NCBI RefSeq assembly: GCF_045037415.1
Contig: NZ_CP173438.1
Reading direction: 5' to 3' (one strand)
From: Escherichia coli
GTDB lineage: Bacteria; Pseudomonadota; Gammaproteobacteria; Enterobacterales; Enterobacteriaceae
Length of the DNA stretch: 64,000 nt
Positions 46,679-54,417 of the stretch are shown piece after piece. The notes below the pieces were generated by a model. That model was not told the origin of the DNA and did no database searches. It saw nothing but the letters and a program-made list of their open reading frames with translations. Position 1 is the first letter of the stretch; each line of letters begins with the position of its first letter. The position numbers and the translations under genes are program-made.

Positions 46679-47695
46679 TTAATCATCCGGCGTCAGTTCG
46701 CCACGCAGGTTTTGGCTCATGGCCTTGCGAATGGTTTCAGTATCAAGTTTCTGGCTAAGCAGGTAATGCAGTTTGGTTAGCGTGGCTTCTACAGTCATAT
46801 CTGCACCGCCAATAACGCCGGCATGGGCGAGGGCGTTACCGGTGGCATAACCACCCATGTTCACTTTACCGGACATACATTGTGTCAGGTTGACCACCAC
46901 AATACCGCGATCGCTGGCTTCTTGTAATTCCTGCAGGAAGGCTTTGTTTTGTGGCGCATTACCCACGCCATATGAGCGCAGAATCAATGCTTTCACAGGT
47001 TGGCGCAGAAAATTGCGCACGACGTCAGCAGAAATCCCCGGATAAATCGTCACTACGCCAATTGGTTGCGGCGTGATTGGATGAACGATCAATTCCCCTT
47101 CGCCGTGCGGGGCGGGTGGCGTATTCAAACGACGAATATGGATACCTGCTTCCAGTAACGGAGGAAGGTTTGGAGAGGCAAACGCATCAAAACCATCGGC
47201 ATGGGCTTTGGTGGTTCGGTTGCCACGATACAGTCGATTATTAAAAAAGAGAGTTACTTCGTTGATAGGATAATTCGCCGCAACGTACAACGCATTCAGC
47301 AGATTAATTTGTCCGTCAGAGCGTAACTCAGCCAGCGGGATTTGTGACCCTGTCACAATGACCGGTTTACTGAGATTCTCGAGCATGAACGACAGTGCAG
47401 AGGCGGTATACGCCATCGTGTCTGTGCCGTGCAGAATGACAAAACCATCATAGTCGTCATAGTGCGCTTTAATATCTTCAGCAATATGCTGCCAGTCTTC
47501 TGGCGTCATATCAGAAGAATCCATCAATGGCGTATATTCATGAATGGTGAAATCTGGCATCTCCGGGCGATGGAATTCCGGCATCAGCGCCAGTTGGCGC
47601 TGTAGATGACCTGACACCGGAATATAACCCTGCTCGGAACGCTGCATCCCGATGGTCCCGCCCGTGTAGGCGACGTAAATTGATTTCTTTTGCAT
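46679..47695 (-). CDS. ansA: cytoplasmic L-asparaginase 1
   Basis: 338-aa ORF MQKKSIYVAYTGGTIGMQRSEQGYIPVSGHLQRQLALMPEFHRPEMP...; 10 bp upstream of pncA. Confidence 0.96.
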   Translation of the reverse strand: MQKKSIYVAYTGGTIGMQRSEQGYIPVSGHLQRQLALMPEFHRPEMPDFTIHEYTPLMDSSDMTPEDWQHIAEDIKAHYDDYDGFVILHGTDTMAYTASALSFMLENLSKPVIVTGSQIPLAELRSDGQINLLNALYVAANYPINEVTLFFNNRLYRGNRTTKAHADGFDAFASPNLPPLLEAGIHIRRLNTPPAPHGEGELIVHPITPQPIGVVTIYPGISADVVRNFLRQPVKALILRSYGVGNAPQNKAFLQELQEASDRGIVVVNLTQCMSGKVNMGGYATGNALAHAGVIGGADMTVEATLTKLHYLLSQKLDTETIRKAMSQNLRGELTPDD

Positions 47696-47826
47696 GATAT
47701 TGATATGAATGATATCGAAAGAGCAAAAGTATATACGTGAGGGGCAGCGAGCGCACCTGGATACTCTGTGGATATGAGAAAAGTCCGGCAGAACGGAGGG
47801 ATTAGTGTCCCGCCGGAGAAAAGTGG

Positions 47827-48549
47827 TTAATCCTGCAACGCATAGGTTACGGTGGTGACTACGCGTACCGTTTTATTAATCGCCGTAGGATCATCTTCAT
47901 CACTGCCACTGGCGAAGATCTGGAACACGCCTTGTGAGGCATCGCTAATTGACCCCACCTGGCTACCTGAGTCCGTTGCAAATTGTAATGCTGCGTTGCG
48001 TGCATCTTTGGTGGCGGCGGCAATCATCTCAGCGCGCAGTGCGCCAATACCATTAAAGCGATAGGCGACTTTGCTCTCAGCGATAGCGCCCTCCGTAGCG
48101 ACTTGCAGTTCGTTTAATTTCGCGACGACTTTTTCGACAGCAGCAACATTATGGGTTTTTATCGTCACTGACCCGTCTGCGTTATAGCGTGGCATTGTGG
48201 GATCATCTTTCAGATAAAAGGAATCTGTTCGCTTGCTTGTCCATTGGCCCAGGGTTATCTCTTTCTCGTTAATCCCCTGAGCATTGAGTTCGGCAACAAT
48301 TTTTTTCTGCGCGTCTTCCAGTTTCGGGAACAGTTCGCCGGGAATATTACCCTTAAAGTTAATCGCAATTGTTAATTCTGCCGTATCTGCGCGAACTTCT
48401 TTTTCAGAAAGCCCACGCACATTTACATAACGGTTATTGGTTTTTAAATGTTTAACACCATCGCCAACAAAATAACCACAGGCGCTAATCCCCAGTCCGA
48501 GGACGATAGCGGCAATTAAAGAGGGGGCCTTATTCACTGATGACTCCAT
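47827..48549 (-). CDS. predicted lipoprotein with SIMPL/DUF541-like periplasmic domain (not at this position in K-12 as I recall it)
   Basis: Open frame 47827-48639 (270 codons); most plausible start ATG 48549 gives 240 aa MESSVNKAPSLIAAIVLGLGISACGYFV... with a signal peptide and lipobox (ISA|C); C-terminal ALRAEMIAAATKDARNAALQFATDSGSQVGSISDAS resembles the SIMPL (YggE-like) fold; no strong Shine-Dalgarno seen. Confidence 0.65.
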   Translation of the reverse strand: MESSVNKAPSLIAAIVLGLGISACGYFVGDGVKHLKTNNRYVNVRGLSEKEVRADTAELTIAINFKGNIPGELFPKLEDAQKKIVAELNAQGINEKEITLGQWTSKRTDSFYLKDDPTMPRYNADGSVTIKTHNVAAVEKVVAKLNELQVATEGAIAESKVAYRFNGIGALRAEMIAAATKDARNAALQFATDSGSQVGSISDASQGVFQIFASGSDEDDPTAINKTVRVVTTVTYALQD

Positions 48550-48615
48550 ATCAGATGCTAAATGAGCAAGGGAATGTAGTGGAGAGAGGGAGTGAAAGAC
48601 AGTCCGATTCAGGAG

Positions 48616-48645
48616 TGTGGCCGACAGCATATCGGCCACATTTTT
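48616..48645 (+). terminator. canonical intrinsic-terminator-like hairpin + T5, oriented for the plus strand (TGTGGCCGA-CAGCATA-TCGGCCACA-TTTTT)
   Basis: 9-bp GC-rich stem, 7-nt loop, five T on the plus strand, 8 bp from the sppA stop; no annotated plus-strand gene upstream; in the minus direction it has an A-tract before, not a U-tract after. Confidence 0.4.
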
Positions 48646-48652
48646 GCAGGAC

Positions 48653-50509
48653 TTAACGCACGTTGGCGCAGGTCAGGCAAAACGCATAACGGTTTTGTGG
48701 GTCGTTAAACGCGGCCAGCTTGTCGCTTTCACTTTTAACGGTAGAGGCTACCGAGGCCAGCGGTGCAGGTAACATGGCCTGGAACGCATCTGGCAACATT
48801 GCCCGGACAGAACCAGACATGTTGTCCATCACTTTGTCGAAGAAGGTCGGTTCATCAACGTAGTATTCCAGATGCCACTGTTTCACTTTTGCCAGCTCTG
48901 CTGCTTTGGCGACCGCATCATCGAAATCCCCGAGACTATCGACCAGCCCGTTAGCTTTTGCATCCTGACCGGTCCAGACGTGGCCCTGGGCGATTTTATC
49001 AATCTGCTCCGGCGTTGAATGACGCGCATCAGCAACCAGCGTGATAAAGCGTTTATAGCCATTCTCAATGCTTAACTGCATCATCTGCTGCACTTCCGGC
49101 GGCAGTGCCCTGGTGATAGAAACATCCGCCAGCGGTGAAGTTGAGACACCATCAGTATGAACACCAATCGAATCCAGACTATTTTCTACGGTGGTGATCA
49201 CGCCGAAGATACCGATAGAACCGGTCAGGGTGCTGGGGTTAGCCACAATGTAATTAGCTGGTGTGGAAATCCAGTAACCACCAGATGCCGCCATGCCACC
49301 CATCGATACAACCACAGGCTTACCCGCTGCCCGGGCTGCTGCCAGTTCAGCGCGAATCACTTCAGACGCGGTAACGCTGCCGCCGGGACTATTAACACGC
49401 AGAACAATCGCTTTCACTTTCGGGTCAAGGCGAGCGTCGCGGATTTGTGCCGCAGTGGTATCACCGCCAACATTCCCCTGAGTTTCCTCGCCATCCATAA
49501 TTGCGCCATTAGCGAAGACGACACCGATACTGTCACCGGTATCTGCCGGCGTTTTCAATGCGTAATCGTAATAACTGATGGCGCGATAATTTTTATCAGT
49601 TTTACTCCAGCCGAACTCTTTGGTCAGAGTTTTTTCGATTTCGGCACTCGATGCCAGTGCATCGACCAGCTTGTTTTCCAGCGCATATTTCGCGGTATCG
49701 CCACCGGTTTTGGTTAAACCCTCAAGCAACCCTTGCGCGCCAGGGAATACCTGCTGAGCAGGGATCTGGCGGTTAGCGGCAACAGTATTCAGATAGTTTT
49801 GCCACAGCTCACCAATCCAGCGGCTGTCAGCTTCGCGGGCTGCCGGCGACATATCATCACGAATAAACGGTTCAACGGCAGATTTATACGTACCCACGCG
49901 GAACACATGGGTGGAAACTTTCAGCTTATCCAGTAACGATTTGTAGTACAGACCGTTGGTGGCAAAGCCGTGCAGATCAACCACGCCTTGCGGAGACAGC
50001 CAAATTTTATTGGCGAAACTGGCGAGATAATATTGCCCCTGGCTGTAGTTCTCGCCAACGGCATAAACCGGTTTCCCGCTGTCACGAAACTCTTTCAGAG
50101 CTTTGCCGATGTACTGCATAGACGGCTGGTCGCCGCCTGCGAAGTTTTTCAGATCCATCACAATACCGGTGATATTGCGGTCGTCCTTCGCCTGGCGAAT
50201 GGTGTTGACGATATCAAACAGTGAGTTTTCCTGAAGACGATCGGAACTGGCACCAAGCAGCTGGCGGCTTAATTTACTAAACCGCTGAGAACTGTCGGGT
50301 TTATCGACGATCACACCAGAAATGTCCAGCAGCAGTGCGCCACGACTGGCCGTTTCTTTCGAATCACCACCACTGACCTGCATCCAGATCCCCACACCAA
50401 CCAGCACGAGAAAAATAAAGAACAGGTTAAGTACCATTTCACGGACGAAATTCAGCAGACGCCACGTCCATTTAAAAAATCCGGCAATAAATCGCCAAAG
50501 GGTTCGCAT
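48653..50509 (-). CDS. sppA: signal peptide peptidase A (protease IV)
   Basis: ORF 48653-50521; K-12-length product (618 aa) begins [45 protein letters not shown]... Confidence 0.95.
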
Positions 50510-52385: not shown

Positions 52386-54341
52386 ATGCGGTTGTTTATT
52401 GCCGAAAAACCGAGTCTGGCGCGCGCCATTGCTGATGTCCTGCCTAAACCGCACCGGAAAGGCGATGGCTTTATCGAGTGCGGTAATGGTCAGGTGGTGA
52501 CCTGGTGTATCGGTCACCTGCTTGAGCAGGCGCAGCCAGACGCCTACGACAGCCGCTATGCGCGCTGGAATCTTGCGGATTTGCCAATTGTCCCGGAAAA
52601 GTGGCAATTACAGCCCCGACCCTCCGTGACTAAACAACTTAATGTCATCAAACGCTTCCTGCATGAAGCCAGCGAAATCGTTCACGCCGGAGACCCGGAT
52701 CGCGAAGGGCAACTGCTGGTGGATGAAGTGCTGGACTACCTGCAACTGGCACCGGAAAAGCGCCAGCAGGTACAGCGTTGTTTGATAAACGACTTGAACC
52801 CGCAGGCGGTTGAGCGGGCGATCGATCGTCTTCGCTCCAATAGCGAGTTTGTACCGCTGTGCGTTTCTGCACTGGCGCGGGCGCGGGCTGACTGGCTGTA
52901 CGGCATTAATATGACCCGTGCGTATACCATTCTCGGCCGCAATGCCGGTTATCAGGGTGTGCTTTCCGTGGGACGCGTGCAGACGCCCGTACTCGGACTG
53001 GTGGTGCGCCGCGACGAAGAGATTGAAAACTTCGTGGCGAAAGACTTCTTTGAAGTCAAAGCACATATCGTGACACCTGCCGATGAGCGGTTTACCGCTA
53101 TCTGGCAACCGAGCGAAGCGTGTGAACCGTACCAGGATGAAGAAGGGCGCTTGTTACATCGTCCACTGGCGGAGCATGTGGTTAACCGTATTAGTGGTCA
53201 ACCAGCTATTGTCACCAGCTATAACGATAAACGGGAATCAGAATCCGCGCCGCTGCCTTTTTCGCTTTCGGCGTTGCAGATTGAAGCGGCTAAACGTTTT
53301 GGTCTGAGCGCGCAGAACGTGCTTGATATCTGCCAGAAGCTGTACGAAACGTACAAGCTAATCACTTATCCGCGTTCCGATTGCCGCTATTTGCCAGAAG
53401 AACATTTTGCCGGACGCCACGCGGTGATGAATGCTATCAGCGTTCATGCACCGGATCTGTTGCCGCAGCCAGTGGTAGATCCAGATATACGCAACCGCTG
53501 TTGGGATGACAAAAAGGTCGATGCGCACCACGCCATCATTCCGACCGCACGGAGTTCTGCGATCAACCTGACGGAGAACGAAGCGAAGGTCTATAACCTG
53601 ATTGCCCGTCAGTACTTGATGCAGTTCTGCCCGGATGCGGTGTTCCGCAAGTGTGTTATCGAACTGGACATTGCCAAAGGCAAATTTGTCGCTAAAGCCC
53701 GTTTTCTTGCTGAAGCAGGCTGGCGCACGCTGTTAGGCAGCAAAGAGCGCGATGAAGAAAACGACGGCACGCCGCTGCCTGTGGTGGCGAAAGGCGATGA
53801 ATTGTTGTGCGAAAAAGGCGAAGTGGTAGAGCGGCAAACCCAGCCGCCGCGCCATTTTACCGATGCAACACTGCTTTCGGCGATGACCGGGATCGCGCGC
53901 TTTGTGCAGGACAAAGATCTGAAAAAGATCCTTCGTGCGACCGATGGTCTGGGGACAGAAGCAACGCGTGCCGGGATTATTGAACTGTTGTTCAAGCGGG
54001 GTTTCCTGACCAAAAAAGGGCGCTATATCCACTCCACCGACGCCGGAAAAGCGCTATTCCATTCGCTGCCAGAAATGGCGACGCGACCGGACATGACCGC
54101 GCACTGGGAATCGGTGCTGACGCAAATCAGCGAAAAGCAGTGTCGCTATCAGGACTTTATGCAGCCGCTGGTGGGGACATTGTACCAGTTGATTGATCAG
54201 GCAAAGCGCACGTCGGTAAGGCAGTTTCGGGGAATAATGGCTCCCGGCGGTGGAGAAGGGAAGAAAAAGGATTCGCCACGCAAGAGAGCGCCGAAAAAAA
54301 GCCCGCCATCAGAAGAGGCGGGCAATGGAGTGATAATATAA
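52386..54341 (+). CDS. topB: DNA topoisomerase III
   Basis: ORF 52329-54341; first ATG after selD stop at 52386 ([49 protein letters not shown]...), 651 codons; Lys-rich C-terminus. Confidence 0.94.
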
Positions 54342-54377
54342 AGGTTCTTTCAACCATCTGATACTGAAGATTTTTAT

Positions 54378-54410
54378 GGCCGGATAAGGCGTTTGCGCTG
54401 TATCCGGCAC
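54378..54410 (-). repeat. REP (repetitive extragenic palindrome) element
   Basis: Minus strand reads GCCGGATACAGCGCAAACGCCTTATCCGGCC, matching the E. coli REP family (GCCGGATGCGGCGTAAACGCCTTATCCGGCC); lies in the 76-bp gap between convergent topB and gdhA. Confidence 0.55.
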
Positions 54411-54417
54411 AATTGTC

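Follow-up and report, generated by a model that had tools for sequence, protein, structure and literature searches.

The archetypal bacterial protein of the DUF541/SIMPL family is BP26/Omp28 of Brucella (4HVZ), a soluble periplasmic/envelope protein with a cleavable signal peptide. BP26 is described as strongly immunogenic and as binding extracellular-matrix proteins in vitro (PMC7697752). E. coli has a SIMPL-domain envelope protein of its own, the oxidative stress defence protein YggE (NF008299), which shows the alanine-rich helix pattern also seen in the product described here; its gene belongs to the core genome and lies at another chromosomal site than sppA-ansA. A further member, the SIMPL-like protein of Campylobacter jejuni (7C50/7C51, released in 2020, and 10AM), is known from solved structures; the chain 10am_A is entered as a “Periplasmic protein” of 231 aa and was deposited as nine chains. 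Our literature search returned background on BP26 only, and nothing on the function of the C. jejuni structures or on the E. coli gene described here.

We analyzed a window of 64,000 nucleotides of E. coli DNA (assembly GCF_045037415.1, contig NZ_CP173438.1; the window is this whole stretch), in which another SIMPL gene lies between sppA and ansA. The gene is already annotated and is of a known family, and its presence is ordinary accessory-genome variation, not a new insertion. We consider it highly probable that it is a functional accessory gene, inherited vertically and deleted in most E. coli, whose product is a Sec-exported, membrane-tethered periplasmic SIMPL-domain protein.

The SIMPL gene and its expression signals

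The sppA-ansA spacer is 957 bp long in the window and 166 bp long in MG1655 (b1766/b1767) and C43(DE3), so that 791 bp are extra in the window. A frame of 270 codons is open on the minus strand at 47827..48639, bounded by the sppA stop at 48653 and the ansA ATG at 47695. An earlier, sequence-only reading had pointed to this open frame and had taken about 0.8 kb of DNA here, with its gene, to be extra relative to K-12; both points were borne out, and the MG1655 spacer does not hold the ORF. The same reading had started the product at ATG 48549, giving 240 aa, and had seen no convincing Shine-Dalgarno sequence. Both of these details had to be revised, and the gene and the signals around it are as follows.

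47827..48537, minus strand: SIMPL/DUF541 coding sequence, GTG 48537 to TAA 47827, 711 bp, 236 aa plus stop, equal to WP_001030438.1
48544..48547, minus strand: Shine-Dalgarno sequence GGAG (48547-48544), 6 nt 5’ of GTG 48537, overlapping the non-conserved ATG 48549
48616..48640, minus strand: GC-rich hairpin just after the sppA stop, -17.8 kcal/mol, z -4.5, common to the K-12 allele and here with no U-tract
48592..48615, minus strand: conserved 24-nt spacer motif CTCCTGAATCGGACTGTCTTTCAC upstream of the SIMPL gene, present in E. albertii and E. fergusonii and partly in a Citrobacter-like contig
47775..47817, minus strand: terminator-like hairpin CCGGCGGGAC...GUUCUGCCGG (47817-47784) plus ACUUUUCUC, directly after the SIMPL stop

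The identical sequence is annotated in RefSeq/PGAP as the 711-bp coding sequence of WP_001030438.1, “SIMPL domain-containing protein”, with GTG 48537 as its start. Either this GTG or, in its stead, an ATG is kept in O55:H7, strain A30, LCP22, Escherichia sp. MOD1-EC7003, E. albertii and E. fergusonii, and also in two further enterobacterial contigs, giving start conservation across seven taxa. A purine-rich Shine-Dalgarno sequence stands 6-8 nt 5’ of the start in every taxon compared (AGGA in E. albertii, AGGAG in E. fergusonii, AAGGAA in the Citrobacter-like contig L088 and AGGAGG in the enterobacterial contig L091). In both E. albertii and E. fergusonii, ATA stands in place of the upstream ATG 48549, whose G residues fall within the Shine-Dalgarno sequence. 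Because ATG 48549 is not conserved, while GTG 48537 and its Shine-Dalgarno sequence are, we take the product to be 236 aa and not 240 aa in length.

The assignment of the product to the SIMPL/DUF541 family, proposed in the sequence-only reading, was upheld by a full-length match to Pfam PF04402 with E 3.2e-18 and 67.2 bits, in which residues 42-236 of the 240-aa form cover all 205 positions of the model. The AF2 model of the protein has a mean pLDDT of 85.7 and places residues 4-29 in a helix, at low confidence, followed by a well-predicted alpha/beta domain. Frames of 236-237 codons are uninterrupted in 9 of 9 taxa and alleles examined, and dN/dS of the gene is 0.06-0.13 in every comparison, out to saturated dS. 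The SIMPL gene is under purifying selection. The exact protein is found on at least 1000 public contigs and is named in both NCBI and UniProt (A0A061YFW5), where the cluster members include E. marmotae and one Shigella flexneri record.

The spacer contains two hairpins that might bear on transcription of the gene. The hairpin after the SIMPL stop folds as RNA at -18.3 kcal/mol (z -5.1, 83% of the ensemble) and, owing to its 12-nt loop, escaped a consensus terminator scan. The hairpin after the sppA stop is followed by a T-run in K-12 and E. fergusonii. A sigma-70 consensus scan returned no promoters, and Rfam, scanned over 44-52 kb at E<=1, placed no RNA family in the spacer. We set aside GCCGATAT, which resembles a sigma-28 -10 box, as a part of the terminator stem. 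The conserved motif CTCCTGAATCGGACTGTCTTTCAC might be a promoter or an operator, a suggestion made by inference only. The hairpins would allow transcription to continue from sppA into the SIMPL gene and to stop after it; a promoter of its own at the motif is equally possible, because E. fergusonii has a proper terminator upstream of the motif. Transcription would probably read through the U-less sppA hairpin or start at the spacer motif, and would end at the hairpin and U-tract at 47817-47775.

The ORF is carried by 943 of the 5,426 complete RefSeq E. coli genomes (17%, a figure from a clinically biased genome collection that is not a population frequency), each time as a single copy and always on the chromosome. 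The carriers fall into two identity groups: 585 of the 943 are >=99% identical to the window and include a record named O25b:H4-ST131, and the other 358 are 97.5-98% identical and include O157:H7, O55:H7 CB9615, O145 and strains A30 and LCP22S3_I2. Carriage is concentrated in two pandemic lineages of pathogens, ST131 and O157:H7/O55:H7. The gene is missing from about 83% of complete E. coli genomes, K-12 among them, which have a spacer allele that is 791 bp shorter, with an identical gap size in 24 of 24 sampled gene-lacking genomes. The gene was not found in MG1655, CFT073, UTI89, Nissle 1917, S88, APEC O1, ATCC 25922 or the type strain.

In a spread sample of carriers, 58 of 60 have uninterrupted 711-bp matches that are annotated as the SIMPL protein, and the other two have an IS1B insertion and a span of 712 bp, respectively; the sequence-only reading had allowed that the frame might prove to be interrupted in most genomes, which is not what the sample shows. 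The ORF might alternatively be a decaying remnant, or a mis-called frame without function, as could be argued from its absence in 83% of complete genomes, the IS1 insertion in one carrier, the 1-bp length change in another and the lack of a promoter in the consensus scan. This reading is already contradicted by the low dN/dS out to saturated dS, by the intact frames in all nine taxa and alleles together with the conserved start and Shine-Dalgarno sequence, by the uninterrupted copies in the sampled carriers and by the confident fold prediction, and we regard it as scarcely credible.

Ancestry of the gene and the two spacer haplotypes

The gene order sppA-SIMPL-ansA-pncA also occurs outside E. 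coli, in at least the taxa given below with their amino-acid identities to the window proteins.

E. albertii: SIMPL 86%, SppA 97%, AnsA 98%
E. fergusonii: SIMPL 70%, SppA 87%, AnsA 95%
Escherichia sp. MOD1-EC7003 (cryptic Escherichia): SIMPL 96%
Logan contig L088 (Citrobacter-like): SIMPL 67%
Contigs L091/L092 (enterobacterial): SIMPL 66%, SppA 76-80%

The SppA encoded on contig L088 is 97-98% identical to those of Citrobacter youngae, C. freundii and C. portucalensis. We compared synonymous divergence in the SIMPL gene with that in sppA and obtained dS values of 0.075 and 0.077, respectively, for ST131, the lineage of the window, against O55:H7 (B2 against E), and of 0.29 and 0.28 for ST131 against the cryptic Escherichia. 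A search for repeats around the extra DNA revealed no flanking direct or inverted repeats, target-site duplications, integrase or mobility genes. The plasmid collection contained only distant homologues (best 36% identity), and PHROGs gave no meaningful match, the only hit being to a function-unknown family at E 0.033.

The sequence-only reading had described the lipoprotein gene as inserted, with about 0.8 kb being extra, which would amount to an insertion of foreign DNA in the lineage of this strain. The absence of the gene from K-12, from most E. coli and from other B2 strains, which match the window at 99-100% in the flanks, would fit an insertion, as would the base composition of the ORF (GC 47.8%, GC3 46%), which lies slightly below the 50-52% of the flanks (sppA 51.9%, ansA 50.2%). 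The foreign origin was not borne out. The locus is occupied by the same gene, in the same position and orientation, in E. albertii, E. fergusonii, the cryptic Escherichia, the Citrobacter-like contig and another enterobacterial contig. The gene and the flanking core gene have equal dS in both the B2-E and the E. coli-cryptic clade comparisons, and the marks of a mobile element (target-site duplications, inverted repeats, an integrase, close plasmid copies, a phage family) are missing. An insertion is thus largely refuted and very improbable, and “inserted” probably gives the wrong direction of the event. From the synteny in other taxa, the purifying selection, the dS that tracks sppA, a GC only slightly below that of the flanks and the lack of a mobile-element signature, we infer that the gene is the ancestral state at the locus and that the K-12 arrangement arose by one old deletion. 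The correction concerns the direction of the event: K-12 has a deletion, and the strain analyzed here has no insertion.

In 80 distant loci that encode homologues, sppA, ansA and pncA are missing throughout, and even the commonest flanking families recur in six loci at most. This gives no lead to a role from the neighbourhood, and the adjacency to sppA is therefore a matter of inherited synteny and not of functional pairing.

We further analyzed the locus in an alignment of 18.6 kb of the window with CFT073 (B2, without the gene), O55:H7 (E, with the gene) and K-12 (A, without the gene), which delimited the following block.

47743..48649, no strand: haplotype block, from the four-genome alignment, sliding identity and site patterns

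All informative sites from 48649 to 47743 pair ST131 with O55:H7 and CFT073 with K-12, and those outside the block sort by phylogroup. Across sppA and ansA and past them, the window and CFT073 are 99-100% identical, and their identity falls to 88-97% only where the sliding windows touch the spacer; in those same sliding windows, ST131 and O55:H7 are still 98-99% identical. The recombination breakpoints lie at the gene borders, one at the stop codon of sppA and the other ~50 bp 5’ of the ansA ATG. In the downstream part of the spacer that both alleles retain, the gene-bearing and the K-12-type alleles are 76% identical (~24% diverged), and each of them is 74% identical to E. albertii. B2 and non-B2 copies within each allele class differ by 1-3%. 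The gene-bearing and gene-lacking haplotypes of the spacer are deeply diverged from one another, each with ordinary between-phylogroup divergence.

The K-12 allele has a U-tract after the shared hairpin (GGCCACATTATTTTTT) that resembles the corresponding sequence of E. fergusonii (GGCCACATTTTTTTGT), and this U-tract is missing in the present gene-bearing alleles of E. coli and E. albertii. The deletion appears to be old, and the gene-bearing haplotype on which it took place is possibly absent from present samples. We considered, and downgraded, a clean excision between two CCAC tetramers, given that the retained spacer is ~24% diverged and that the K-12 T-run is found in E. fergusonii and not in present gene-bearing E. 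coli. A CCAC/CCAC microhomology at the deletion is possible, and the exact deletion breakpoints cannot be assigned, because the retained spacer is only ~76% identical and the K-12 allele keeps its T-run. The deletion allele may have spread among phylogroups, or segregated across them, by homologous recombination, and short tracts of recombination, ending at the gene borders, would have brought both alleles across phylogroups. The locus is a tidy example, on a small scale, of two old alleles, one with and one without a gene, that such tracts would have moved between phylogroups.

Lipid or helix anchoring of the product

The N-terminus of the protein was analyzed for the means by which the SIMPL domain might be held at the membrane.

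48478..48537, minus strand: codons 1-20, signal peptide or membrane anchor MNKAPSLIAAIVLGLGISA, then Cys20 (TGT 48480-48478) in the lipobox I-S-A-C

We used our own implementation of a PROSITE PS51257-type lipobox rule, which asks for [LVI][ASTVI][GAS]C with the Cys at positions 15-35, a K or R in the first seven residues and an uncharged h-region. The E. coli N-terminus, MNKAPSLIAAIVLGLG-ISA-C20-G (MNKAPSLIAAIVLGLGISA|C), passes the rule. All of its terms (a K in the n-region, a 13-residue h-region, I-S/T-A-C and Cys at 20) are found in E. coli, E. albertii and the Citrobacter-like sequence. Only 6 of 110 full-length homologues pass, and five of these six are from Escherichia or close enterobacterial relatives. 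E. fergusonii has ITVC, which is non-canonical with Val at -1, and the next enterobacterial relatives have ITAG and ITAA at the position of the lipobox. The sequence-only reading had called the product a clear lipoprotein; the lipobox is real in the E. coli allele, but “clear” overstated the case in view of the few homologues that pass and of the ITVC in E. fergusonii. A match of residues 1-22 to the LptM model NF047847 (13 bits, cut-off 27.7) falls short of assignment and reflects the resemblance of signal peptides.

In a 28-sequence alignment (33-86% identity), the uncharged N-terminal segment of the family ends in G-[YF]-F-x-G-D-G. Since so few homologues (6 of 110) have a lipobox, the ground state of the family is, as predicted from these alignments, a helix-anchored periplasmic protein, and the lipobox of Escherichia would be a lineage-specific novelty. 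In the other family members, the stretch in which Cys20 would fall is a transmembrane helix, which makes lipidation less certain, as does the ITVC of E. fergusonii.

The protein would be exported by Sec, with its SIMPL domain (residues ~36-236) facing the periplasm. In the family at large, an uncleaved N-terminal helix would hold the protein in the inner membrane. In E. coli and E. albertii, a Cys may have created the lipobox ISA|C with Gly at +2, so that the protein would probably be lipid-modified and sorted by Lol to the outer membrane. Under the Lol sorting rule, Gly at +2 directs a lipoprotein to the outer membrane. On the evidence of the lipobox, we lean towards a lipid anchor for the E. 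coli protein.

With the same gene and the same history, the SIMPL domain might instead be tethered to the inner membrane by an uncleaved signal-anchor helix, Cys20 being incidental. We hold this to be quite possible, though somewhat less likely than not: 104 of the 110 homologues lack a lipobox and have a 20-24-residue uncharged segment with the G-[YF]-F-x-G-D-G ending, AF2 predicts residues 4-29 as one helix, the chain in PDB 10am includes the N-terminal segment, and E. fergusonii has the disallowed Val at -1. It is opposed by the full agreement of E. coli, E. albertii and the Citrobacter-like sequence with the PS51257-type rule and by the retention of the Cys across them.

We also considered, in view of the breakpoints at the gene borders, the ordinary between-phylogroup divergence of each haplotype and the concentration of carriage in two pathogen lineages, that the presence/absence is a polymorphism which dates back to the origin of E. 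coli or beyond and has been kept by selection, together with a switch of anchor in Escherichia from an inner-membrane helix to an outer-membrane lipid; we judge this combination to be decidedly unlikely. If it were true, the outer-membrane lipid anchor would make the protein a potentially exposed antigen or a host- or phage-interaction factor, like BP26.

Comparison with known SIMPL proteins

PF04402 is present in all of the 120 homologues listed except one fragment. The 28-sequence alignment contains an invariant helix, (L-R-A-E)-M-I-A-A-A-T-K-D-A-R-N-A-A-L-Q-F-A-x-D-S-G, and the residues G16, G21, G25, R36, M171, A175, T176, A179, R180, A182, A183, F186, A187, D189 and S190 are invariant throughout. 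With its length in the range of ~230-240 aa, the N-terminal G-[YF]-F-x-G-D/N-G segment and this helix, the E. coli protein belongs to a membrane-anchored SIMPL subfamily whose type is the C. jejuni SLP (7C50/10AM). The subfamily is widespread and, among the matches listed, includes Alphaproteobacteria, Gammaproteobacteria, Bacteroidales, Desulfovibrionales, Synergistetes and spirochaetes. None of the PADLOC anti-phage defence models gave a match.

The gene could be taken for a second copy of the K-12 oxidative-stress defence protein YggE, a paralogue in the same role, given their common Pfam family and a weak match to the YggE equivalog model NF008299 (E 5e-4). That match reaches 19.5 bits, far below the curated cut-off of 249 bits, the architecture is different, with a membrane-anchor/lipobox N-terminus and its GYFxGDG motif, and the nearest solved relative is the C. 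jejuni protein and not one of the BP26/YggE type. As judged from the model score, the SIMPL protein is not an orthologue of YggE, and a paralogue in the same role is improbable.

By analogy with BP26 and with the nine-chain deposition of the C. jejuni relative, the protein might be a self-assembling, non-enzymatic envelope scaffold that adds robustness to stress, an idea that we put forward with low confidence. Such a scaffold would be periplasmic and dispensable, and neither an enzyme nor a defence system. The locus itself is of little discovery value, as the sequence is already in RefSeq and UniProt under its family name. ST131 and O157 are tractable backgrounds, and a dispensable E. coli member in them would be a convenient handle on a SIMPL subfamily with solved structures.

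The SIMPL two-lobed alpha/beta fold of the protein is supported by AF2 and by the top Foldseek matches, 7C50 and BP26 4HVZ, both at probability 1.0. The Brucella protein shares the Pfam family and the fold (Foldseek E 8e-11, profile E 1.9e-6), at ~16% identity and an rmsd of 7.4 Å over 223 columns. The C. jejuni “Simpl-like protein” 7C50 matches at E 2e-16 with a TM score of up to 0.76, and phmmer against the PDB gave 10am_A (E 1e-27) and 7c50_A (E 4e-26) as the nearest solved chains by sequence. The C. jejuni protein is of the same subfamily as that of E. coli, to which it is ~31% identical over residues 9-236, and the two are alike in length, in the N-terminal hydrophobic segment and in the helix L-R/K-x-x-M-I-x-x-A-T-x-x-A-R-x-A-A-x-x-F-A-x-D-S. 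They differ in that the C. jejuni protein is without a Cys or a lipobox, whereas the E. coli allele has ISA|C.

Elements of the spacers flanking the SIMPL gene

Three short elements were located in the spacers on either side of the SIMPL/DUF541 gene, which lies between sppA and ansA:

48616-48640, hairpin 3' of the sppA stop
48592-48615, motif CTCCTGAATCGGACTGTCTTTCAC in the sppA-SIMPL spacer
47691-47718, tandem-like short direct repeat TGCATGATATTGA / TGAATGATATCGA, 15 nt apart

We compared the hairpin with its counterparts in L003 (2707-2740) and L007 (E. fergusonii). A U-tract follows it in E. fergusonii, as it does in the K-12 deletion allele, which lacks the SIMPL gene; the U-tract is missing from the gene-bearing alleles of E. 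coli and E. albertii. Because of this distribution, sequence comparison suggests that the deletion may have originated on a gene-bearing haplotype, so far unsampled, in which the sppA terminator was still present. E. albertii and E. fergusonii both keep the adjacent CTCCTGAATCGGACTGTCTTTCAC motif, and a Citrobacter-like contig keeps part of it. No sigma-70 consensus was found at the motif, which we regard as a candidate regulatory site. The direct repeat overlaps the start of ansA together with the 5' leader of that gene, within a stretch of the spacer that shows no differences between any of the E. coli, cryptic-Escherichia and E. albertii alleles.

Variant copies and the Citrobacter-like contig

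The SIMPL gene of one genome carries an IS1B insertion (NZ_OX030701.1 448924-450411; match H1/H31), and another copy is 712 bp long compared to the usual 711 bp (NZ_CP040316.1 3160690-3161401; match H89), possibly reflecting a frameshift or a sequencing error. The sppA-SIMPL-ansA order was also recovered on L088, a 2393-bp Logan contig (SRR14739086) that is Citrobacter freundii-complex-like, its SppA being 97-98% identical to those of C. youngae, C. freundii and C. portucalensis. Since records of the L088 SIMPL protein (P0007) come from Logan assemblies only, the gene appears to be uncommon and polymorphic in Citrobacter as well.

The ydjK and topB-gdhA loci

The aligned region of the window is continuous with K-12 and CFT073, where ydjK is intact; in E. 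coli O55:H7 CB9615 (L099, 20819-21331) the gene is annotated as a truncated pseudogene. The topB-gdhA spacer of the window (54203-54417) spans only ~215 bp, including a REP-like palindrome, while ynjI occupies this site in K-12 and O55:H7; the window thus lacks one K-12 gene. CFT073 has a three-gene block in place of ynjI, encoding a J-domain protein, an Hsp70-family protein and a hypothetical protein. Given these differing contents, the topB-gdhA site is a second multi-allelic hotspot.
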